In this document: in pieces, positions 2,853 through 35,050 of the stretch | How positions within the stretch are numbered: the stretch's first letter is position 1 | Layout of the letters: each line of letters begins with the position of its first letter | Source of the DNA: a virus | Direction: 5' to 3' (one strand) | Length of the DNA: 35,050 nt | Virus genome (UHGV): UHGV-0197915 | Translations under genes and position numbers: made by a program | The notes under the pieces: model-generated | Seen by the model: the letters and a program-made list of their open reading frames with translations, nothing else | What the model was told of the DNA's origin: nothing | Databases searched by the model: none

Positions 2853-3074
2853 TCACATCCATTGAATTTGCTGCTGACCTGACGTTGTTGGATGCGGCGG
2901 CGCGGGTACTACCTCGCCCGATGATACGATGAAACGCTCGACTGTTTCAGTGGTCACAAACGTGCAACTGCAGTTGATGTTTGTGCACTGGTGATACCGC
3001 TCTTTTGTGGTATCAGTAAAATAGCGACTCGTGCGGGCGTGGGCGGCATGATGGCATTTCGGACAATGAAACAT
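2853..3074 (-). CDS. ogr: Ogr/Delta zinc-finger late-gene transcription activator
   Basis: MFHCPKCHHAAHARTSRYFTDTTKERYHQC…SGQQQIQWM closely resembles P2 Ogr as recalled; start placed at the Met preceding FHCP. Confidence 0.85.
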   Translation of the reverse strand: MFHCPKCHHAAHARTSRYFTDTTKERYHQCTNINCSCTFVTTETVERFIVSSGEVVPAPPHPTTSGQQQIQWM

Positions 3075-3155
3075 GATGAGGGTCTCCGGCGTATTCAATG
3101 TGTTAATTTTACTCATTTTTCACTTATAAAACAAACACATAATTAAAACACATCG

Positions 3156-13320: not shown

Positions 13321-13668
13321 TTAACTCAGTGGAAGGGTGATAGAAAAAGGCTGGCCTGATGCCGAACGCGTGCCGGTCATATCGACGTACATCGCGCCGT
13401 CATCCTCTCCGCGTTCAACGGTGATGGTCGACAAACTGACGCGCGGTTCCCACCTCTGGATCGCGGAGTAGCACGCGGCCATAATCTGCAGACGCAGCGC
13501 CGGGGTCTGCGGCTGGTCAATCAGTGCAGACAACAGCGAGCCATATTCGCGGCGCATGACGCGCGAGCCCACTGGCGTGACCAGAATGTCGCGCACGCTT
13601 TGCCTGATGTGCTCAACTTCAGAAATACTGAGGCCGGTCTGGCTGTTCATTCCCAGATAACGCACCGT
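13321..13668 (-). CDS. W: Baseplate protein gpW
   Basis: Start chosen at MTVRYLG (ATG overlapping the V stop by 1 nt); ~115 aa as in P2 W. Confidence 0.75.
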   Translation of the reverse strand, partial: TVRYLGMNSQTGLSISEVEHIRQSVRDILVTPVGSRVMRREYGSLLSALIDQPQTPALRLQIMAACYSAIQRWEPRVSLSTITVERGEDDGAMYVDMTGTRSASGQPFSITLPLS

Positions 13669-14309
13669 CATTTGACCCCCTTCGTCCAGTTTCCGCCCGG
13701 CTCCACGCCACCATGATCGTGGGCATCGACCTGCACGCCGTTTGAGGTAAATTTCCCTTCGGTGTGCTCGATGTTCCCCGACATCGTCCCGCCTTTTTTC
13801 ACTTCGAGCGTGCCGGTGATGAGCTTGTTGGTACACACCACCTCGGGAGTATCGAGGGTAATGCGGGTTTCGGCTTTCACCAGCACCACCGGCACGATGG
13901 CGGTAATGGACTCCGACGCGGTAACGTCGGCGGTTTTAATACCGGATACGGTGAGCGCCCCGTTTTCGGGTTCGTACTCGATAACCACCCCGTCAGGAAA
14001 AGTGACGTGAAACGCATCGGACGAGGCCGACGGCGCAGGATGGTCATCAGAGAAAATGCCGGGCAGCACAAAGGCTGTGTCCAGCTCGCCACCAATGGCA
14101 AGAATGAGCACCTGCTCGCCAACAGAAGGAGCCCACCACACCCGCGAGCGGCCGGCGCGGCAGGTCAGCCAGTTAAGCCAGGTGGTTTGCATCCCGCCGG
14201 TCTGTACACGACAAAGCCCCTCGACGGGGTCGACGTCGGTCACAATGCCGGTGCGGATAAGGTTGCGGATCGCCCGAGCGATTTCCTGTAAAGAATTTAA
14301 ATTATTCAT
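13668..14309 (-). CDS. V: Baseplate spike/assembly protein gpV
   Basis: Start chosen at MNNLNSLQEIARAIRN (213 aa); the longer ORF upstream looks like read-through. Confidence 0.75.
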   Translation of the reverse strand: MNNLNSLQEIARAIRNLIRTGIVTDVDPVEGLCRVQTGGMQTTWLNWLTCRAGRSRVWWAPSVGEQVLILAIGGELDTAFVLPGIFSDDHPAPSASSDAFHVTFPDGVVIEYEPENGALTVSGIKTADVTASESITAIVPVVLVKAETRITLDTPEVVCTNKLITGTLEVKKGGTMSGNIEHTEGKFTSNGVQVDAHDHGGVEPGGNWTKGVK

Positions 14310-14572
14310 GTGGAAAGGATGCCGACTGGAAAGGCTAGTGGCAATCAAGTGGAGTTTTATGGGAGATGAAACAACAATTATCAGCTTTAAAATATCAGTA
14401 TAATTCATCCCATTAGATTAATGAGAGCCACATAAAGGATTTATCAAATAGCAAAACTTAGAAATGAAATAAATCTCATAGACATTTCATCATGATATAA
14501 AATTATTTTCCGAACTCTTACCAAAGCAGATATGGGGCTAAATTATCAAACAGCCCCACGAATATTAAAACA

Positions 14573-15154
14573 TTATTTTCCACAAACCATATTATCTATC
14601 GCGGCCATATAGGATACAAACAGATCTACATAACCACTTACGTCAGTGAGACTAATATCATTTGCATTGTCGTTATGATGAATAATGTTATTTCTCTTTA
14701 CAACCACTGCATTCACAACATCCTTATTCGCATTAAATTCCGCCGAATTCAAAAGATTAACACCCAAATAAGAAAATGCCTTAATCGTCTTGTAAGGATT
14801 ACCAGATAGGCTATCCGACACCTCACTTTTATCAACCTTTAAATCAGCATCTATATATTTCAACTCCTTATCTTTAACATCTTTTTTGACTCGCCAAAGC
14901 AAAAAATTGTGTGGCAAGCAGGCTGCTTTAAGCCTGCGATTGATGGTATCGCAGTGCCATGTTGCAACCTCAGTCAAATACGACTCTAAATAAGTGCAGA
15001 GTGTAATAAGATACGATTTAACAAAAAAATTAATGTTCTTATTGAAGAATTCATTTTCCTCAAGGATAGCCTGTTGCTCCGTCTCCTTAATAATTTCTTT
15101 TAAGGATAAAAATAATGAACGATATCCATCATAGTATTCAGTATTTTCCATCAA
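14573..15154 (-). CDS. HEPN-like protein (RNxxxH motif), predicted RNase-type effector
   Basis: 193 aa, AT-rich; KRNNIIHH matches the HEPN Rx4-6H signature; overlaps the upstream DUF262 gene by 17 nt. Confidence 0.5.
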   Translation of the reverse strand: MMENTEYYDGYRSLFLSLKEIIKETEQQAILEENEFFNKNINFFVKSYLITLCTYLESYLTEVATWHCDTINRRLKAACLPHNFLLWRVKKDVKDKELKYIDADLKVDKSEVSDSLSGNPYKTIKAFSYLGVNLLNSAEFNANKDVVNAVVVKRNNIIHHNDNANDISLTDVSGYVDLFVSYMAAIDNMVCGK

Positions 15155-16187
15155 TAACTTCCTTAAGAAGTGCCACCCAACTAGCCCTACGCTTCATCAC
15201 CGAACTCTTATTCTGTAGCCCACCTGATAAAGTTTTTTTGAACTCAGCACTTGAACAAAGAGTAAACCAAGCATTCCGTATTTGTTCGGACTTTTCATTT
15301 ACAATATCATCATTTAACTTGCCAATTGTAGGCATTAAAATGTCATAATGAACTAACCCTTTACGTTTTCTCCTAACTGTAGGGTTTGTAAATACATCTT
15401 CACCAAATATTTTTTCACACTTAGATAATGATGTTTTGAATCTCTCCCTCATAATATTCAGTTCATCATCTTTTAAGTCTGAAAATTTTTCCATATGATC
15501 ATCCAAGAATTCTTTCAAGGAGCTATCAAAGTAATCAAAAAAGTTATCTTCATAAAATGCAAAAAAACGCAAAACTTGTTCGTCTGGCTCACGACTATCT
15601 CTTTTTACTGTAGTTGTTTCCGCCAAACCAAAATTTTTAATGGCATCAATATTACCTAACTCTTCTAATAATTCATCAAACCCTCCCGGATATAACGCAT
15701 GTCTTATTTCTTGGTCAGAAAGTTTAACTGCCCCCTGATTGAGTCTAGAAAATATCTCTCTTATTAATTTTTTGGGATTTTCTTTTCTTAGAACAATGCA
15801 TCTTATTGTTGTCGACTCTAACTCTGAACGTAGAGATCCTAATTCAGAAAACTTTTTCCCTTCAAGCTCTTTAAATGTAGTCATTCCCTCCAAAGCGAAC
15901 TCGTCATCAAAAAATTTCTGTATTGTGGTTAATCGCTGAACACCATCAATTACAATATGATTGCCGCTATCATCTTCTGCAAAGTAACAAGATGGAAGAG
16001 GAATACGCATTAAACAAGATTCAATGAATTTTGAAGATCGCAGCCATCCGTCCTGATCCCATTTGTACTTTCTTTGAAAGTCTGGATTCAGTTTTAGTTT
16101 GATGGGATTGGACTTCATCCTAGAACATAAAGTCTCAAATGGATAATCTATGGGGAATAAATTCAATGTTTTATCATCGTTAGACAT
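15138..16187 (-). CDS. DUF262 (ParB/GmrS-like NTP-binding) domain protein
   Basis: 349 aa; N-terminal PDFQRKYKWD … IDGVQRLTT motifs characteristic of DUF262; AT-rich cargo gene between S and V. Confidence 0.6.
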   Translation of the reverse strand: MSNDDKTLNLFPIDYPFETLCSRMKSNPIKLKLNPDFQRKYKWDQDGWLRSSKFIESCLMRIPLPSCYFAEDDSGNHIVIDGVQRLTTIQKFFDDEFALEGMTTFKELEGKKFSELGSLRSELESTTIRCIVLRKENPKKLIREIFSRLNQGAVKLSDQEIRHALYPGGFDELLEELGNIDAIKNFGLAETTTVKRDSREPDEQVLRFFAFYEDNFFDYFDSSLKEFLDDHMEKFSDLKDDELNIMRERFKTSLSKCEKIFGEDVFTNPTVRRKRKGLVHYDILMPTIGKLNDDIVNEKSEQIRNAWFTLCSSAEFKKTLSGGLQNKSSVMKRRASWVALLKEVIDGKY

Positions 16188-16322: not shown

Positions 16323-16769
16323 TCAATTTAGATGTTCAATAACCAATTTTTCAATCAACAAATTGTCTCTAAAGTCAACACCAAGCAACTGCCGTTCTGG
16401 GTATTGCACGTCCTGAGCATGTGGGTTTGGCCGGTCTTTAAGTCCGAGCTGATGAATCTGAGCAATGCGTTGCACCTTGCCGGTAAACTCGACCACCGCT
16501 GCATCATCGCGGCCTCTGGCTTTCATGTAGCGGTTCGTTCGCAACTTCTGAAACATCGTCCGCTTAATACGCCCTTTCTTCGCTCTGAGCGGCTGGCGTT
16601 TTCGCGCCTGATACGGCGTGCCATCAGGCGCTTTTTGCTGTTTGATGCGTTGCTGTTGCGATCTGCGCATTTGCTTTGCTATTTCAGCGGCCAGCTTGCG
16701 CCGACCCGCCGGTGATATTGCCGCAATCAGTCCCGCCAGTTTGTCATCAAAAGGTTTAAATTCATTCAT
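16323..16769 (-). CDS. S: Tail completion protein gpS
   Basis: 148 aa at the P2 S position. Confidence 0.8.
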   Translation of the reverse strand: MNEFKPFDDKLAGLIAAISPAGRRKLAAEIAKQMRRSQQQRIKQQKAPDGTPYQARKRQPLRAKKGRIKRTMFQKLRTNRYMKARGRDDAAVVEFTGKVQRIAQIHQLGLKDRPNPHAQDVQYPERQLLGVDFRDNLLIEKLVIEHLN

Positions 16770-23934: not shown

Positions 23935-24942
23935 ATGAAAAAACGACAGAAGAAACCCGCCACAATGACCGCCAGCGCACCGCAAAAAATGGAGGCGTTT
24001 ACCTTTGGTGAGCCGTCCCCCGTTCTGGATCGCCGCGACATCCTCGACTATGTCGAGTGCATCAATAACGGGAAATGGTACGAGCCGCCGGTCAATTTCT
24101 CGGGACTGGCAAAAAGCCTGCGCGCCGCCGTTCACCACAGCTCGCCGATTTACGTGAAGCGTAACATTCTGGCGAGCACCTACATTCCGCACCCGTTGCT
24201 GTCGCGTCAGGATTTCAGCCGTCTTGTGCTCGATTATCTGGTCTTTGCCAACGGCTATCTTGAGAAGCGCATGAGCGTCACCGGCCAGCTATTAAAACTG
24301 GAAACCTCCCCGGCCAAATACACCCGCCGGGGTGTCGAGGATGGCGTTTACTGGTACGTATCGAGCTACACCCAGCCGCACCCGTTCGCGCCCGGCTCGG
24401 TGTGTCATCTGCTTGAGCCCGATATCAATCAGGAACTTTACGGGATGCCGGAATACCTGAGCGCACTCAATTCAGCCTGGCTGAATGAATCCGCCACGTT
24501 ATTTCGTCGTAAGTATTACCAGAACGGGGCGCACGCGGGGTATATCATGTATGTCACCGACGCGGCACAGAGTAGCACCGACGTTGAATCGCTCCGTAAC
24601 GCGATGCGCGACTCAAAAGGGCTGGGGAATTTTAAGAACCTGTTTTTCTACGCGCCCAACGGAAAGCCAGACGGGATCAAGATTGTGCCGTTGAGTGAAG
24701 TCGCCACGAAGGATGATTTTTTCAACATCAAAAAGGTCAGTGCCGCTGACCTGCTCGATGCGCACCGCGTGCCGTTTCAGCTGATGGGCGGCAAGCCGGA
24801 AAACATCGGCTCAATGGGTGACGTTGAGAAGGTGGCGCGGGTGTTTGTGCGTAACGAGCTGACGCCATTGCAGGAGCGTTTCAAAGAGATTAACGACTGG
24901 CTTCAAGAAGATGTAATACAATTTGAAAAATATTCTATTTAA
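23935..24942 (+). CDS. Q: Portal protein gpQ
   Basis: ATG at 23935 directly after the P stop; 335 aa. Confidence 0.85.
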   Translation: MKKRQKKPATMTASAPQKMEAFTFGEPSPVLDRRDILDYVECINNGKWYEPPVNFSGLAKSLRAAVHHSSPIYVKRNILASTYIPHPLLSRQDFSRLVLDYLVFANGYLEKRMSVTGQLLKLETSPAKYTRRGVEDGVYWYVSSYTQPHPFAPGSVCHLLEPDINQELYGMPEYLSALNSAWLNESATLFRRKYYQNGAHAGYIMYVTDAAQSSTDVESLRNAMRDSKGLGNFKNLFFYAPNGKPDGIKIVPLSEVATKDDFFNIKKVSAADLLDAHRVPFQLMGGKPENIGSMGDVEKVARVFVRNELTPLQERFKEINDWLQEDVIQFEKYSI

Positions 24943-24983
24943 AACAAAATGAGAAAAGGTGCGTCATTTTAAATAACGCACCT
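24941..24983 (-). terminator. Rho-independent terminator downstream of the kinase/phosphatase cassette (hairpin shared with the Q 3' end)
   Basis: AGGTGCGT…ACGCACCT 8-bp stem followed on the minus strand by TTTCTCATTTTGTTTT. Confidence 0.5.
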
Positions 24984-24994
24984 ATATTACAAAA

Positions 24995-25705
24995 CTAAAT
25001 TTCAAAAATAATCAATGAATAATTATCCCTAGTCTCTCTACTCTCAACAAGCTCTATTACACTAGCACCATACTCATTTAACGAATTATATTTCACTGAA
25101 AGATCTCGGAAATCTTTTTTGCTCACAACTGACGAAACCCCGTCAGATAGCAAAGCTATTCTATCACCTATCTGTAAATTACATTCAAATTCATGGACTT
25201 GTAGAGGCTTGTGTGCACCAAGGGCACTATCAAGAATGTTCTTACGAGGGTAATCAACTGCAGTCTCTTTCGTCAGCTTACCTTCACGTAGTAGACGAGC
25301 TACTTCACTGTGATCATAGGAAAGTTGTTTGACGCCACTTCCTCTTAATAGATAAGTCCGAGAATCTCCACAATTGGCTCCTATCAATTTATTCCCGATA
25401 AGCTTTGTTACAGTCACAGTACTTGCCATTCCAGCCAATTTTCCATCTTTCTGAGCAGCATCTTTGATCGCTTCATCAGCTCGGGTTATGGCTTCGAGAA
25501 GAGAGATGCTACTATCCGAACGCATGGCCGCAGCAATAATGTCCAGTGCTAATTGAGAGGCTGTTTCTCCCCCCAAATTCCCGCCGACACCATCCGCAAC
25601 GCCACATAACAAATCAGCGCTGGGTAAAATCTCAACCAAGATAGAGTCTTGGTTGTGGCTTCTAGGTCCCGGAGATGTGTAAGCAAATTTATTAATCAAT
25701 GGCAT
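24995..25705 (-). CDS. PP2C-family Ser/Thr protein phosphatase
   Basis: 236 aa with GVADGVGG, GDSR and SDGV motifs; AT-rich; start overlaps the kinase stop by 10 nt. Confidence 0.7.
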   Translation of the reverse strand: MPLINKFAYTSPGPRSHNQDSILVEILPSADLLCGVADGVGGNLGGETASQLALDIIAAAMRSDSSISLLEAITRADEAIKDAAQKDGKLAGMASTVTVTKLIGNKLIGANCGDSRTYLLRGSGVKQLSYDHSEVARLLREGKLTKETAVDYPRKNILDSALGAHKPLQVHEFECNLQIGDRIALLSDGVSSVVSKKDFRDLSVKYNSLNEYGASVIELVESRETRDNYSLIIFEI

Positions 25706-27027
25706 ACTCTTTGTATCATTGCGAAAAGTTCAGGATGAAGCATATCAGGTGTGGCACCAATTGATCTTTGGAGATGACTCACCGCTGCACACATTCTACC
25801 CTCAAGTATGCTCATTTCCAAAGCAAGCCTTTTAGCCAGTTCTGGAGTCATGTCGTGCCCTGCCACGCTCATGAAGCGTCTCTCGACATACCAACGATTA
25901 TGCGACGTTCCCATAAGAAGCATAGCTATAATAATTTCGGCTTTACAGTTCAAATCGTGAAGTTGTAAAAATTGTTCGAGACGAGTGCAAATCCCATCAC
26001 ACTGTTCGAATGAAAATACTCCATCCGCAACCCAACGACCATATGCTTCACCAAGACGACAAGCTAGCGTGGTATCATGAGCGATTATCTCATTAATCCT
26101 GTTTAAAGTTAGACGCTGAAATATCACCTTGGAGTTTTCTTGTCCAATATTATCCTCTACGAAATTGATTATTTCCCTCCATGTTTCAACATTAATTCCG
26201 GCGTCACTATCTAATGCTGTAGTATATGTTCCAACCTCAGCAGAGAGATGTATTACTGTAGAAGGATCAATACTAAGAATTGCATCCCTTAATGCTGCAA
26301 CACTTGGAAATCTTCTTGAAGGATCTCTACGAGTACAAACCCGTAAAATATGCGCATATGCGCTCGAATCATTATTAATTTCACCACAAGGAATTCTTTC
26401 ATCCGTGCCTACAAAGTCATGCAGTATACACCCCAAAGAATAAATATCTGAAGCAATACTAGCTTTTCTAAGATCTGAAACAATTTCAGGTGCGGTGTAG
26501 TAATCAGAACCCATTTTCATACCTGTATGGGTTAGTGCTGAAATTTGAGTATCTTTTACTGACATCAGGCCAAAGTCGCTAATAGCGTAATATGGACCTT
26601 CACTTGAATCAAATCTAAGCACATTTTGTGGTTTGAGATCACGATGATAAATTTGCAACGTGTGCAATTCTTCGAGTCCAGACAAAATATCCATTATTGC
26701 TCTTAAAAATAATCCATTCAAGTTTCTACTTTGCGCAATATCTTTATCAAGGCTAGATGCTGCTACTGGCATAAGGAAAGATGGAGGGTTACTATTTAGA
26801 TCTTTAAAAAGGACAGGTACAATATTTTTATGCGTAAGTCTATACTGTACGTTTGCCTCTCTTATAAATCTTTTTTTTACATTCTCTGCCAAATCAGGAG
26901 GCAGCGGTTGAGCTTGATTTATAGAAAATGTTTTCCTAGCGAATTGCTTTCCGCTAAGGACATCTTGCACTAAATCAACATTACCAAAACCGCCACTACC
27001 TATCCGTCTAACTTCATTAATCACCAT
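25696..27027 (-). CDS. Eukaryotic-like Ser/Thr protein kinase with ~180-aa C-terminal domain of unknown function
   Basis: 443 aa with GSGGFGNV glycine loop, HRDLKPQN catalytic loop, DFG and APE motifs; AT-rich. Confidence 0.75.
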   Translation of the reverse strand: MVINEVRRIGSGGFGNVDLVQDVLSGKQFARKTFSINQAQPLPPDLAENVKKRFIREANVQYRLTHKNIVPVLFKDLNSNPPSFLMPVAASSLDKDIAQSRNLNGLFLRAIMDILSGLEELHTLQIYHRDLKPQNVLRFDSSEGPYYAISDFGLMSVKDTQISALTHTGMKMGSDYYTAPEIVSDLRKASIASDIYSLGCILHDFVGTDERIPCGEINNDSSAYAHILRVCTRRDPSRRFPSVAALRDAILSIDPSTVIHLSAEVGTYTTALDSDAGINVETWREIINFVEDNIGQENSKVIFQRLTLNRINEIIAHDTTLACRLGEAYGRWVADGVFSFEQCDGICTRLEQFLQLHDLNCKAEIIIAMLLMGTSHNRWYVERRFMSVAGHDMTPELAKRLALEMSILEGRMCAAVSHLQRSIGATPDMLHPELFAMIQRVCH

Positions 27028-27116
27028 ATTGTGCCCCTTGCCTTTTTTGAGATAATTCTGAATTATTCTTTTTGATAATACTAAAAAAAATGAAATTTAA
27101 AACCCCTCAGCGCGCA

Positions 27117-27135
27117 ATGCTATCCCCGCCTCGCC
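27117..27135 (-). other. cos site (19-nt cohesive-end sequence GGCGAGGCGGGGATAGCAT on the minus strand)
   Basis: Minus strand reads GGCGAGGCGGGGATAGCATTGCGCGCTGAGGGG, a near match to the P2 left end (GGCGAGGCGGGGAAAGCAC…) as recalled. Confidence 0.7.
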
Positions 27136-27417: not shown

Positions 27418-27651
27418 CTATGGCTTCGCCATATTTGATGGCCGAAACGCCTCAATTTTCGGATTGCTGATATCGCTGTATTTGCGGTGATTATCCCGGA
27501 CGACACCGGCACACCCGACCAGTTCGTCAGGGGTCAGATTCTCGTTAATCATAATTTGTTGCAGGCGATGCACGACGGCCATCAGCTTAATGTTTTGCGT
27601 TGAATGTACGGGCGGCACTGGCATCATTCGCATATGACTCATTTTAACCAC
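27418..27651 (-). CDS. Hypothetical protein (77 aa)
   Basis: ORF overlapping the upstream gene stop; no recognisable motif. Confidence 0.35.
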   Translation of the reverse strand: MVKMSHMRMMPVPPVHSTQNIKLMAVVHRLQQIMINENLTPDELVGCAGVVRDNHRKYSDISNPKIEAFRPSNMAKP

Positions 27652-28103
27652 CCATTTTTTTTAGCATCTGCGACCAGCTTGTCGGAATATTGCCAGACAC
27701 CATCACAAGCGACATAAGCCCCCCCCGAAACGCCGTTAAGTGTTTCAAATCCAATAGCCAGCCCTAACGGGTGTAGAATTTCGTGATTAATTCTGAAAAC
27801 AAGCCCCTTCTCGCTTAACTCTTTCCAGTTCATTAGGGACATACCGCACTTGACATCTGGCATCATTAACTGAAAACTCAGCATCACATAATTTTCCGCC
27901 CATTCAGATAAATCAGTAACGTATGTCACCCTCACTGATACACGTTTCCCGGTATATCCGTTTACCGGTTCCCATTCATGCAACCCGAGAATATCACCGC
28001 TAGAATAATCGCGGTTATTGAGACGAAATTCAGCACGTTTTTCCTGAGATATCACAGCGTTAAAATGCTCAGGTGCAATTTTTAACTCATGGATTTTGCT
28101 CAT
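27639..28103 (-). CDS. DUF3850/ASCH-like domain protein with extra C-terminal domain
   Basis: Start MSKIHELKIAPEHFNAVISQEKRAEFRLNNRDY… resembles DUF3850; ATG overlaps the gene A stop (TAATG) and is preceded by AGGAG. Confidence 0.55.
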   Translation of the reverse strand: MSKIHELKIAPEHFNAVISQEKRAEFRLNNRDYSSGDILGLHEWEPVNGYTGKRVSVRVTYVTDLSEWAENYVMLSFQLMMPDVKCGMSLMNWKELSEKGLVFRINHEILHPLGLAIGFETLNGVSGGAYVACDGVWQYSDKLVADAKKNGWLK

Positions 28104-30391
28104 TATTTCCACTCCTCTTGAATTGAGAATCCCGGCCACTCATCAGCAGCCGCGTATTTGAATTTTTTATCGCCATAAATCACCGTTGCCCCACGCACCA
28201 GCGCTTCGAGCTCCCACCGTTCCGGGGTAATGCCCTCCTGAGCCAAATCGAAACGAATTTTCGCCACGCGATCCCTTTCTGGTTTTGTCATCCTGGCTGA
28301 TGGAGCTTGCTCACTCGTTTTGAGTAGCGCATTGCTTCTTTGCTGGCGATTTTTGCGAGGGATGCCAGCTCTTAACGCACCGTTAAGCGCCTTCATGACG
28401 TCTGGCTCATTCCATCCGATAACTCCGCGCTCAATCAGATTTAACACCGCTGCGGCTTGCTCAGACGGTGTGGGTGTCATAACTGGAGTATCACCGTCGG
28501 TGAGCTTTCCACAGTTATTGACAGGACTCCGAGGCGCGGCAGCGCCGCTTTTTAAGGTCAAAGGCTCAACGGCCAAAACCTTTGGAACTATGCGCCATTC
28601 CGCTGTACGGGTTACATGTACGCGGCTCGCCCCAAGATGAGGGGCATAAATACCGACCACTTTCTCGATATCCTCCTCGTATTCGTTTACCTCATCCGTC
28701 ACCTTACGGGCGACCCTGACCACCTGAGCATCACGCGGCATGTTTGCCCCACCCTGCGCGCTGATGTACAGGTCAAATTCCCCCTCATCTGCAGCAGCCC
28801 GGACGGCCTCGACACGGTCGTCAAACTCGCTGGCGATACTCACCCCGCGCGGCAGCTTACGCAGTTCGCGGTAAGCGCCCATTGTCGGGAGGCCAATCGG
28901 TTTAAACTGAGGGATACGCCATGTAGACGCCCATGCGGTTACGGCTGCGGCCGTATCTTTCAGAGGTTTGCCGGTATCGTGATCGAGCTGACCGTCAAGC
29001 GCGTAGCCGTCGATATTTTTGGCAATGTATTTGGCGATATAACCCGCCGCGCCCCCCTGATTAAGGTGACGCGACTCAAAGCGCTGTTTTGCCGCGCCCT
29101 TTTCGTGTCCGTCCTCTTTGAGGGCATAACGACGCATAATTTCGTTGATAGCTTTACGCTGACCGAGTTTGCAAAAAAGCATCATATGCCAGTGTGGCGT
29201 GCCGTCGTGGTGCGGCTCGACAACGCGCATCCCATACACTTCCAAATCGTTATCTTTGAAAGCGGTACGCATCAGGCTCCAGATTCGGCACAGATAGCGC
29301 TGGCCGTTTTTAGGGGTGAATGCGGTTTCGTTCCAGCCGTGATTGAGCTGCACCGTTTTGCTGTCACCTTTGCCGACCTGTCGGGTCGGGTGATACTTCG
29401 ACGGCGTGGTCAGCGTGATAAACATTCCCACATCACCAACGCTGGCCGCATAGCGTTCAATTCCGGCAATGGTATTCATCAGCTCCATACGGCGTATTTC
29501 AGGGTTTGAAATACTCCCCATGACTTTACTGATGAGGTCGATACGTTCGCCGGTAACTTTGTTTTCCAGCTCACAGGATTTCAGGTATTCGAGATTAGCC
29601 AGCCGGCGCGAGTGAACCTCGCGGATCGCCATTTTGCTGGCGTAAGGTGAACGGTCTTTGTTGACTTCACCGGCAGCGATAAGCAGCGCCTCACGCCAGC
29701 GCATACGCTGCGCCTTGAGCTGGTTAACCCACCAATCATCTTTTATCAGACGGGAAATAGCGGAAAACGCCATGCGGATCGTCATCTGACCCTTACGGTA
29801 TTTTTTCCAGTAGAGCGGGGTTAAGTTGAACGCGCGTGCAACACCAGCCACCTGACCATATATGTGCACCTGCGCCTCATCGGTGAAAAGGGTCTCTTTA
29901 CCGCCGAATGCCTCAGCCCATTCGTCGCTGAGTTCCTCGTATTTACGCCAGAGCTGCGCGGCAATTCTGGCCGCAAATTTTTTCAGCTCTTTGTCATTCA
30001 TATCAGGCAAGCGCGCATATTCGTCATGCTCAGACAAGAAACCAATCGACGCAGATTCATTCATCCCGCACAGCTCGTTAACGCGCTCAAGACGCGGCAA
30101 CAGCTTCCGCTCAAAGGTGTTTTTCAGGAAATAGAGCGCCCCGAGCGGGCTCTTTGTGCGGCGAATGAAGTTATAACGGGAAGTAAACAACGTCTTAAGA
30201 AAGAAAGGCAGGCGGTCAATCCGGTATAAAACACCTTGCACCTGACGGAATTCGGCACGTGTAAGGGGTCTGTCACGGCCAATGGCAGCGCGGGGAGCAT
30301 TCCAGGGATAAGCACCAACGAAAGTATCGCCGGTGCGCTTAGATATTGGCAGGGCTAGCGAGGGGGCAATACGCCCCCGAGTCTCAACGGC
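28103..30391 (-). CDS. A: Replication initiation protein gpA (rolling-circle nickase)
   Basis: Start at MAVETRGRIAPS…; strong similarity to P2 A throughout as recalled; 762 aa. Confidence 0.85.
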   Translation of the reverse strand, partial: AVETRGRIAPSLALPISKRTGDTFVGAYPWNAPRAAIGRDRPLTRAEFRQVQGVLYRIDRLPFFLKTLFTSRYNFIRRTKSPLGALYFLKNTFERKLLPRLERVNELCGMNESASIGFLSEHDEYARLPDMNDKELKKFAARIAAQLWRKYEELSDEWAEAFGGKETLFTDEAQVHIYGQVAGVARAFNLTPLYWKKYRKGQMTIRMAFSAISRLIKDDWWVNQLKAQRMRWREALLIAAGEVNKDRSPYASKMAIREVHSRRLANLEYLKSCELENKVTGERIDLISKVMGSISNPEIRRMELMNTIAGIERYAASVGDVGMFITLTTPSKYHPTRQVGKGDSKTVQLNHGWNETAFTPKNGQRYLCRIWSLMRTAFKDNDLEVYGMRVVEPHHDGTPHWHMMLFCKLGQRKAINEIMRRYALKEDGHEKGAAKQRFESRHLNQGGAAGYIAKYIAKNIDGYALDGQLDHDTGKPLKDTAAAVTAWASTWRIPQFKPIGLPTMGAYRELRKLPRGVSIASEFDDRVEAVRAAADEGEFDLYISAQGGANMPRDAQVVRVARKVTDEVNEYEEDIEKVVGIYAPHLGASRVHVTRTAEWRIVPKVLAVEPLTLKSGAAAPRSPVNNCGKLTDGDTPVMTPTPSEQAAAVLNLIERGVIGWNEPDVMKALNGALRAGIPRKNRQQRSNALLKTSEQAPSARMTKPERDRVAKIRFDLAQEGITPERWELEALVRGATVIYGDKKFKYAAADEWPGFSIQEEWK

Positions 30392-33726: not shown

Positions 33727-34044
33727 TCACTCTCCACATTTGAATGTCAGACGAGCGACGCCATGTAATCCTGCACCTTCTGTCTTCAGGTCAACTATCT
33801 GCATTTTTTTGCCCTGAGTAACACAGAAATGGGCTGCATCATTTTTTACTATATTTTCTGCACCAGATATTCTGCCCCTGGCTAAAGAAGCTTCGGCTTC
33901 GGTGTAGTATTGGTTATCGAGTTTACGCTGAATATTACTTTTATATGCAAGACCAAATTTACCGATACTTGTCTCATCATTATGCACAGCACAACCAGAC
34001 ATAATAAAAATACTAATTAATGATATAGCAGCTATCTTTTTCAT
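33727..34044 (-). CDS. yegR: Lipoprotein YegR
   Basis: Start at MKKIAAISLISIFIMSGC (lipobox); 105 aa; synteny with yegS. Confidence 0.8.
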   Translation of the reverse strand: MKKIAAISLISIFIMSGCAVHNDETSIGKFGLAYKSNIQRKLDNQYYTEAEASLARGRISGAENIVKNDAAHFCVTQGKKMQIVDLKTEGAGLHGVARLTFKCGE

Positions 34045-34458
34045 CTCACCTTCCCCCATTAAATACCAACGACACTCTCTAGTGTTTAAATATAATAATG
34101 GCATGATTATTATAATTGAATAGGATTATAATAAATGTTCTGTACAACATTTCCTACATAAGTAGGAATTACGGACATTGAGGCCCTTCAGGGTAACTCC
34201 ATGGGGGCTTTAATATATTTGGAATAGTATATTTAAGATGCCACTGTTTGGTTGAATATTAGGCATATGCTCTTTTTTGAAATTTATCGGTGGCAGCCGT
34301 TAGTATTCGCTGTCCCCATTGCAAGCTCCTGGTGGTAACCACTGAATCCTCCATACTTGAACTGACTTTTTATCCTCCGACTTTCATCCTGTTCTGACTC
34401 CACCTTTTGTTTTCTGCTCTACACTATCTACAGACCAATCATAAAGGCACATACGATC

Positions 34459-35050
34459 ATGGCAGAATTTCCCGCCAGCTTACTGATTCTTAATGGCAAA
34501 AGTACTGACAATCTACCCTTGCGCGAAGCAATTATGCTGTTGCGTGAGGAAGGAATGACGATCCATGTGCGGGTCACCTGGGAGAAAGGCGATGCCGCAC
34601 GATATGTAGAGGAGGCCCGGAAGTTGGGCGTCGCAACGGTGATTGCCGGTGGTGGCGATGGCACCATTAATGAAGTTTCTACGGCGTTGATTCAGTGTGA
34701 GGGGGATGACATACCCGCGCTGGGAATTTTGCCATTAGGAACCGCCAATGATTTTGCCACCAGTGTAGGGATTCCTGAGGCACTGGATAAGGCGCTGAAA
34801 CTGGCAATTGCCGGTAACGCCATTGCGATAGATATGGCGCAGGTCAACAAACAAACCTGTTTTATTAATATGGCGACAGGCGGATTTGGGACGCGTATTA
34901 CCACAGAAACGCCGGAAAAATTAAAAGCCGCGCTGGGTGGCGTCTCTTACATCATTCATGGCTTAATGCGCATGGATACTCTGCAACCGGACCGTTGTGA
35001 AATCCGCGGTGAAAACTTTCACTGGCAAGGTGACGCCCTGGTCATTGGTA
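34459..35050 (+). CDS. yegS: Lipid kinase YegS (3'-partial; continues beyond the window)
   Basis: [15 protein letters not shown]…[10 protein letters not shown]… diacylglycerol-kinase-like catalytic motif; no stop before the window end. Confidence 0.85.

Follow-up and report, generated by a model that had tools for sequence, protein, structure and literature searches.

A Ser/Thr kinase and PP2C phosphatase gene pair on the portal side of cos in a P2/186-like prophage, a candidate two-gene anti-phage module

Among the described systems, the closest to the gene pair considered here is KKP (PfpC-PfkB-PfkA), in which Hanks-type kinases and a PP2C phosphatase are encoded by one prophage-borne operon, with the kinases in the role of toxin and the phosphatase in that of antitoxin in defence against T4 and T-odd phages (Guo et al., Nat Commun 2024; PMC11341870). 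The phage trigger of KKP is bound by the phosphatase and not by the kinase domain: T4 Gp59 acts as an inhibitor of the phosphatase, and many of the essential proteins of the host come to be phosphorylated. The C-terminal accessory domains of the KKP kinases are essential for function, the system also regulates lysogeny, via MvaU, for Pf4/Pf6, and it is carried by P2-like phages, too, between gpA and the portal gene (PMC11341870). Here we describe a cassette consisting of one Hanks-type kinase gene and one PP2C gene in a 35,050-nucleotide stretch of DNA (UHGV virus genome UHGV-0197915; the window hereafter, on which all positions are counted), which the genome of Escherichia coli KV7 (NZ_LT795502.1) matches as a P2/186-like prophage at 100% identity. 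We propose, with a probability of roughly 0.6 and largely by analogy, that this cassette is a self-contained, mobile two-gene anti-phage module of the superinfection-exclusion or abortive-infection type, carried by the prophage as a moron.

Kinases encoded by single genes also defend against phages (PMC9519451). PD-T4-6 is an E. coli Hanks-type kinase of 436 amino acids (aa; from its gene coordinates) that was validated against T4 and was cloned and active as a single gene without a phosphatase (Vassallo et al., 2022; PMC9519451), while Stk2 is an abortive-infection kinase of Staphylococcus epidermidis (Depardieu et al., 2016). The P2 hotspot has been defined broadly as the cos-proximal region from gpA to the portal gene (Rousset et al., 2022; PMC9122126), and it is defined alike by Vassallo et al. 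(2022; PMC9519451).

The cassette between the portal gene and cos

The preliminary description of this DNA had placed an AT-rich insert of about 2 kb between the portal gene and cos, and the comparison with relatives bears this out. The insert measures 2.17 kb, its GC content is 0.37-0.46 over positions 25001-27000 vs. about 0.56-0.58 in the flanking structural genes, and the distance from cos to the portal gene is 2174 bp here vs. 176 bp in phage 186 and about 188 bp in most relatives. The features of the interval are as follows.

23935-24942, + strand: portal gene (homologue of P2 Q and 186 W), the left edge of the cargo slot; context, not cargo
24957-24983, − strand: terminator-like hairpin with a 12-bp stem and a T-run, just 3' of the PP2C stop codon (consensus terminator scan)
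24995-25705, − strand: PP2C/PPM-family Ser/Thr phosphatase, 236 aa (open reading frame and Pfam)
25696-25705, − strand: overlap of the kinase stop and the PP2C start, 10 nt, ATGCCATTGA (sequence read)
25696-27027, − strand: kinase, whole open reading frame, 443 aa (open reading frame and Pfam)
25699-26265, − strand: C-terminal domain of the kinase, aa 255-443 (AlphaFold2 model and alignment)
26266-27027, − strand: Hanks-type catalytic domain of the kinase, aa 1-254 (Pfam and 118-sequence alignment)
27028-27116, − strand: AT-rich leader of 89 nt between cos and the kinase start (sequence)
27117-27135, − strand: cos cohesive-end site, GGCGAGGCGGGGATAGCAT, the right edge of the cargo slot (pattern search)

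Read from right to left, the − strand carries gene A (from 28103), a DUF3850/ASCH gene (27639-28139), a small hypothetical open reading frame (ORF), the kinase gene and the PP2C gene, while on the + strand the large terminase gene is followed by the portal gene, the product of which is labelled 'phage portal protein' in the KV7 RefSeq record. No third ORF is found between the portal gene and cos in the ORF list. As the preliminary description had read it, the kinase stop overlaps the PP2C start, and the 10-nt overlap indicates that the two genes are translationally coupled. The leader contains a ribosome-binding site, AAGGGG, at 27034-27039, 6 nt ahead of the ATG, and a -10-like TATTAT at 27075-27080. 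At the other end, the hairpin at 24957-24983 probably terminates the kinase-PP2C transcript, and its position would also suit the convergent portal gene.

The P2/186 cohesive-end sequence was used as a search pattern and gave one match in the window and none in shuffled sequences. The right end of phage 186, whose annotation puts cos at 1-19, is homologous to the window from 27136. Given cos at 27117-27135 and the 186 homology from 27136 onwards, the cassette falls to the portal side of cos, and a location on the gpA side was rejected. The old and tin genes of P2 are found on the gpA side of cos. Like them, the cassette is AT-rich cargo, highly variable from one relative to the next, in the region from gpA to the portal gene by cos, but it occupies the other side. 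The DNA alignment with 186 ends at about 24903, within the 3' end of the portal gene; replacement of the C-terminal tail of the portal protein by the cargo was also considered and rejected, as tblastn found the protein preserved right up to its final residues in almost every P2-like locus and in the prophage L015 described next.

L015 is a second P2-like prophage with the same arrangement, in which the kinase and the portal protein are each 77% identical to those of the window, PP2C is also encoded and cos is 85 bp upstream of the kinase start. A different hairpin occupies the position of the one at 24957-24983, and the alignment of the two leaders reveals that the start region (GCAAGG...TATATG) is kept and little else. 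The module has thus been retained in a sub-lineage and is no isolated case.

To place the interval among other P2-like phages, the portal gene and gpA were located by tblastn in 120 cos-containing IMG/VR loci, 105 of which had the portal C-terminus. The gap from cos to the portal gene is 178-292 bp in 71 of these (68%; median 188 bp), 390-618 bp in five and 1.0-5.3 kb in 29 (28%). The long gaps are all AT-rich, with GC contents of 0.32-0.49, and their genes nearly always point from cos to the portal gene, as those of the cassette do. Nine of ten representative cargo proteins from this slot match PADLOC defence families, including Septu PtuA (5.8e-123), the retron reverse transcriptases RT-Toprim I-C (8e-195) and RT_I-A (2e-131), DRT UG36 (1e-172), AriA-like and NsnB-like ATPases, PDC-M38A and the TIR-type PDC-S35, and the portal side of cos is therefore a slot for defence cargo in its own right. 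Among the slots of loci L029-L148, some cargo has no PADLOC match or only a weak, ATPase-level one, such as a 513-aa P-loop protein in L108 and a four-gene set with a Dcm-like methylase in L144; cargo of this type may represent further uncharacterised systems.

The two proteins and the described kinase systems

All four kinase motifs named in the preliminary description are found in the translation. The protein matches Pfam family Pkinase (PF00069) over aa 5-222 with an E-value of 1e-28 (100.9 bits vs. a 31.7-bit cutoff) and possesses the elements of a Hanks-type kinase: the Gly-rich loop (GSGGFGNV, aa 10-17), the beta3 Lys (K32), the alphaC Glu (E57), HRDxKxxN (HRDLKPQN, 128-135), DFG (151-153), APE (179-181) and the alphaF Asp (D194), in addition to R239. 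Most of the catalytic motif residues are invariant in an alignment of 118 kinase sequences, with F152 and A179 near-invariant. In the activation loop T166 is invariant and T168 near-invariant, and the most conserved stretch of the kinase is the activation-loop and P+1 block at aa 161-200. Full-length members of this kinase family, of about 440 aa and with 47-55% identity, extend from Enterobacteria to Pseudomonas, Vibrio, Sinorhizobium, Flavobacterium and Mucilaginibacter.

The remainder of the protein, an extension that had been put at about 180 aa and called uncharacterised, is indeed so: aa 255-443 match nothing in Pfam even at E<=10 and have no relative in the PDB. AlphaFold2 modelled the full-length kinase with a mean predicted local distance difference test score (pLDDT) of 89.8 and a predicted template-modelling score (pTM) of only 0.58. 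Within it, the pLDDT of the kinase domain is above 90 except in the disordered activation loop (156-172). Modelled alone, the C-terminal domain (189 aa) reaches a pLDDT of 96.5 and a pTM of 0.91 and is all-helical, with eleven helices that are predicted to form an ARM/HEAT-like α-solenoid. A phmmer search with this domain alone against 1.84 billion representative proteins found only 200 clusters. Because the full-length-sized matches (about 430-450 aa) have the domain at their C-terminus and many of the shorter ones look like fragments, the domain appears to be specific to this kinase family. No other region of the whole kinase protein is as variable as the N-half of this domain (255-335), and the C-half includes the invariant or near-invariant residues C343-D344, G373/T374/H376/N377/R378/W379/Y380/V381/E382, H418, S422, H431-P432 and C442. 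We propose that it is a sensor or docking domain. The C-half contains conserved CDG and GTSHNRWYVER motifs, and its Cys/His cluster (C343, H376, H418, H431 and C442) might bind metal.

The phosphatase motifs reported earlier (DGVGG, GDSR and SDG) are likewise in the translation. The protein matches PP2C_2 (PF13672; 4.6e-11, 43.1 bits vs. a cutoff of 24) and PP2C (PF00481; 3.1e-09, 37.3 bits vs. 20.3), carries the metal-binding motifs of the PP2C/PPM family (RSHNQD, VADGVGG, GDSR, LLSDGV and RDNYS) and consists of the catalytic domain only. Both enzymes of the cassette thus retain their full set of catalytic motifs.

A PP2C gene adjoins the kinase gene in all 33 evaluable loci of GTDB representative genomes and in 10 other loci from protein look-ups and IMG/VR, and the partner PP2C proteins are 224-246 aa long. 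The pairing is in this sense obligate, and the two genes form a single unit. They point the same way in 32 of these 33 GTDB loci, where the junction ranges from -13 to +4 nt (-13 to +8 nt over the homologous loci). The remaining locus, L157 (11333-12010, in a metagenome-assembled genome (MAG) of Flammeovirgaceae), is the sole one with an inverted, convergent PP2C gene; a gene for a PifA-like NTPase is found just downstream. Compared with the proteins of the window, distant members share 60-67% identity in the kinase core, 35-43% in the C-terminal domain and 37-49% in PP2C; as single figures, the values are 63% for the kinase and 38% for the C-terminal domain. It follows that PP2C and the C-terminal domain have diverged in step, and more quickly than the catalytic core. 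Such fast divergence at similar rates fits an arms race or a partner-specific interface. We propose that PP2C is the brake, or antitoxin, of the kinase.

The cassette differs from KKP in several respects. KKP comprises three genes in the order phosphatase-kinase-kinase, whereas the cassette has one kinase gene followed by one PP2C gene, the reverse order; this two-gene layout is found here, where cos and the portal gene bound the cassette, and in all 33 GTDB loci. PfkA carries a cold-shock domain, PfkB an FHA domain and the KKP phosphatase a long C-terminal tail, while the cassette encodes a predicted α-solenoid and a minimal PP2C. BLASTP against the KKP-type proteins from the P2 hotspot of E. 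coli E1167, taken from Table S2B of Rousset et al. (2022), aligned only the kinase core (27% identity, 2e-16, and 37% over 76 aa) and the phosphatases (25%, 3e-11), with no similarity of the C-terminal domain to the E1167 kinases.

The PADLOC profiles of PD-T4-6 match the kinase with E-values up to 6.7e-32, second to mad6 (aa 7-206 vs. positions 14-204 of 443 in the profile, and 6-251 vs. 33-268 of 443; the comparison was made by profile), and the cassette differs from PD-T4-6 in having a PP2C gene. Stk2 (1.1e-22) matches only aa 47-246 and is encoded by a single gene in a Gram-positive host, with a different non-catalytic region and without a dedicated PP2C partner. The best PADLOC match, mad6 (4.2e-33), covers aa 6-221 only, and the NCBIfam model antiphage_MADS6 scores 79.8 bits vs. 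a cutoff of 460; none of the other mad genes is found in the cassette, which is thus outside MADS. The TerY-P triad, which Gao and colleagues reportedly described in 2020, is said to combine a TerY protein with a von Willebrand factor A (vWA) domain, a PP2C and a Ser/Thr kinase and to be defence-associated; no TerY/vWA gene is found in the ORF list of the cassette or in the homologous loci listed with Pfam matches. The best reading, which draws on analogy, is that the module works like KKP, Stk2 or PD-T4-6 and would belong to none of them.

Distribution and proposed function

The preliminary description had expected that a comparison with relatives would expose the cassette as an insertion and that it would not prove to be conserved core of close phages, and the searches agree on both. 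The cassette is absent from 186, from all INPHARED phage records and from most P2-like loci. It occurs in one of 5,426 complete E. coli genomes, 248 of which contain the adjacent cos-proximal sequence at 80-95% identity, and IMG/VR holds three true relatives of the module and only two P2-like phages with it. With its low GC content and its place by cos between gpA and the portal gene, the cassette has the characteristics of P2 hotspot cargo. Full-length members were found in about 37 of 100,044 species representatives from at least six phyla, their groups including Gamma- and Alphaproteobacteria, Bacteroidota, Gemmatimonadota, Synergistota and Campylobacterota. The module is accessory, horizontally mobile cargo and not core.

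Its surroundings are mobile elements or rich in defence genes. The module adjoins Hachiman and a RES toxin gene in Klebsiella and Raoultella, and type I restriction-modification (RM) genes in Mucilaginibacter, Sapientia and one MAG; in Cyclobacteriaceae a class II prokaryotic Argonaute (pAgo) gene is four genes away, and the other neighbours include PifA-like NTPase, SoFic, GajB-like and RT-helicase genes. Mobile elements are found as well: the module is beside P2-like tail and lysis genes in Pseudomonas, directly beside an inovirus prophage (RepG2P, coat protein B and Zot) in Methylovorus sp. (GCA_053848825.1; L151, 10282-14618) and, in Bacteroidota, inside an integrative and conjugative element (ICE) of the CTnDOT type next to ArdA anti-restriction and RadC genes. 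The adjacency to the inovirus in Methylovorus mirrors the position of KKP on Pf prophages. One MAG contig (JAQTWB010000006.1) has two copies of the module (L182 and L183) about 34 kb apart with apparently the same flanks, including a type I restriction enzyme, and these represent either a large duplication or an assembly artefact.

Based on these comparisons, the module may be envisaged to function as follows. The kinase and PP2C would be co-transcribed from the cos side and translationally coupled, such that the lysogen makes both proteins, and PP2C would keep the activation loop of the kinase (T166 and T168), and any substrates, dephosphorylated. An infecting phage could tip this balance either by a product that binds the hypervariable N-half of the C-terminal domain or by inhibition of PP2C, as T4 Gp59 does in KKP. 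The freed kinase would then autophosphorylate and phosphorylate host or phage proteins, and the phosphorylation would arrest growth or phage development. That the lysogen expresses the pair, that the kinase is toxic, and what triggers it and what it targets are all inferred here, mainly from analogy. The abortive-infection logic of a kinase restrained by a phosphatase, which the preliminary description had suggested, has an experimental precedent in KKP (PMC11341870). A more specific version is tentative and, in our estimate, has distinctly less than an even chance: the pair would be a two-protein phospho-switch immune sensor with a mechanism distinct from that of KKP, in which the N-half of the solenoid reads phage proteins and the C-half docks the kinase lobe or PP2C, carried in a portal-side slot that is a defence slot of its own.

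The proposal of a defence module is strengthened by the Septu, retron, DRT and PARIS-like genes that sister phages carry in the same interval, and by the Hachiman, pAgo and type I RM neighbours. Several observations weigh against it. The matches to defence models come only through the generic kinase domain: those of mad6, PD-T4-6 and Stk2 are confined to it, and the PADLOC match of MkoA reaches aa 302. PP2C has no match in PADLOC. A consensus promoter scan of the 89-nt leader detected nothing above the level of shuffled sequences, and with no convincing promoter detected, expression in the prophage state is assumed. The PADLOC scans of the neighbourhoods are family counts, with neither a matched background control nor per-locus resolution, and the evidence from neighbours is qualitative guilt by association. 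The KKP-type module from the P2 hotspot of E1167 was inactive against the set of phages used by Rousset et al. (2022; Table S2B, PMC9122126), so defence by such modules can be narrow. The function proposed for the family is read from sequence and analogy.

Since KKP also regulates lysogeny, defence may not be the only or the main role, and the module could mainly regulate the lysogeny or induction of its own or co-resident prophages through a phosphorylated nucleoid-associated silencer or phage regulator, with defence secondary. This function would be compatible with the proposed defence module, and KKP provides an example of such a dual role with MvaU for Pf4/Pf6 (PMC11341870). The module is prophage-borne here and in L015 and is found beside phage genes in Pseudomonas and Methylovorus. 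On the other hand, many copies are outside prophages, in chromosomal islands by RM, pAgo or Hachiman genes or in an ICE, the P2-like slot is otherwise filled by defence systems and not by regulators, and nearly all close P2/186 relatives do without the module. We consider a mainly regulatory function unlikely. An ordinary lysogenic-conversion or signalling pair, similar to the housekeeping Stk1/Stp1 and serving host physiology outside phage conflict, is improbable in our judgement. Kinase-phosphatase operons are common in bacterial signalling, and the best NCBIfam matches are PknB/Stk1 (NF033483; 5.5e-25, aa 7-206 only) for the kinase and Stp1/IreP (NF033484; 6.5e-49) for PP2C, but both scores are far below the equivalog cutoffs (88.4 vs. 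450 bits and 166.5 vs. 230 bits), PASTA and transmembrane sensor domains are absent, and the patchy distribution that looks like horizontal transfer, the AT-rich island cargo and the contexts of mobile elements and defence islands do not suit a housekeeping role.

Very improbable, finally, is a device for counter-defence or host takeover, in which a kinase like T7 gp0.7 would disarm host defence or other proteins upon entry and PP2C would limit the collateral damage. A preprint reports that the T7 kinase disarms defences broadly (bioRxiv 10.1101/2024.12.20.629319). The cassette is at the extreme end of the packaged genome, about 90 bp from cos, and the pair in the CTnDOT-like ICE of Bacteroidota is next to ArdA and RadC genes, both of which would suit such a device. 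The module is nonetheless very rare in viral contigs (the three true relatives in IMG/VR) and frequent in non-mobile-looking chromosomal islands by defence genes, its slot is used by defence morons expressed from prophages, and an antagonist phosphatase that is permanently paired with the kinase is more in keeping with a restrained toxin than with an offensive enzyme.

Other cargo of the prophage and significance of the gene pair

The prophage contains a second AT-rich island (14573-16187, − strand; GC 0.32-0.39) in the late operon between tail gene S (16323-16769) and the baseplate/spike gene V (13668-14408). Its first gene encodes a DUF262/GmrSD_N protein of 349 aa (PADLOC NsnA, 6.6e-80; PD-T4-2_A, 9.5e-43) and its second a HEPN_RiboL-PSP protein of 193 aa (Pfam, 9.1e-18). 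From its domains the pair looks like a defence system of the PD-T4-2 type (DUF262 and HEPN), by which count no fewer than two defence cargos would be present in the prophage. On the gpA side of cos (27418-28139, − strand) are the genes for a 166-aa protein with DUF3850/ASCH and DUF7415 and for a 77-aa hypothetical protein. Neither ever occurs with the kinase-PP2C pair in other genomes, and they therefore look like independent cargo.

Near one prophage end, a group II intron (562-2279, − strand) lies between the host CyaR gene and ogr (2853-3116). It matches the Rfam models group-II-D1D4-3 (135.9 bits) and D1D4-1 and a domain V/VI model. The protein encoded by the intron is divided between two ORFs, RVT_1 (1210-1953) and the GIIM maturase (638-1162), which suggests that its reverse transcriptase is frameshifted or decaying. 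The full-length gene for the small RNA CyaR/RyeE (411-496, + strand; Rfam, 100.7 bits) is part of the host flank, so the prophage adjoins cyaR, and ARAGORN found no tRNA gene over the whole window. Towards the right end, an AT-rich stretch beyond the integrase gene (33727-34104 and 34000-34500; GC 0.37) contains a 125-aa ORF without a match in Pfam or PADLOC and could be att-proximal cargo or host flank.

The exact kinase-PP2C pair (WP_029392161 and WP_029392160) has been catalogued before. Table S5 of Rousset et al. (2022; PMC9122126) lists 'DUF3850/ASCH + hypothetical + Pkinase + PP2C' (WP_029392163/162/161/160) at P2 loci, as a catalogue entry only. A literature search by protein accession returned no paper, the pair occurring only in that table, and it is not described in DefensePredictor or in a 2026 preprint on the P2/P4 hotspots. 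Thus, the hotspot, defence by kinase and phosphatase and the listing of the pair are already published, while the recognition of a two-gene family that is distinct and widely dispersed, the C-terminal domain with its predicted α-solenoid and the frequent use of the portal side of cos as a defence slot appear to be new.

With the annotation tools now in use, the pair will probably go unnoticed, or else its kinase will be labelled wrongly as PD-T4-6, mad6 or Stk2 from the kinase domain alone; the label PD-T4-6 in particular may be assigned by pipelines because its profiles are among the strongest PADLOC matches. If validated, the module would be a compact, two-gene, phosphorylation-based immune system that extends from Enterobacteria to Bacteroidota and whose sensor or docking domain is without known relatives. 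With just one kinase and one phosphatase, it would also be a simple model for how phages trigger restrained eukaryotic-like kinases and for what these kinases phosphorylate.

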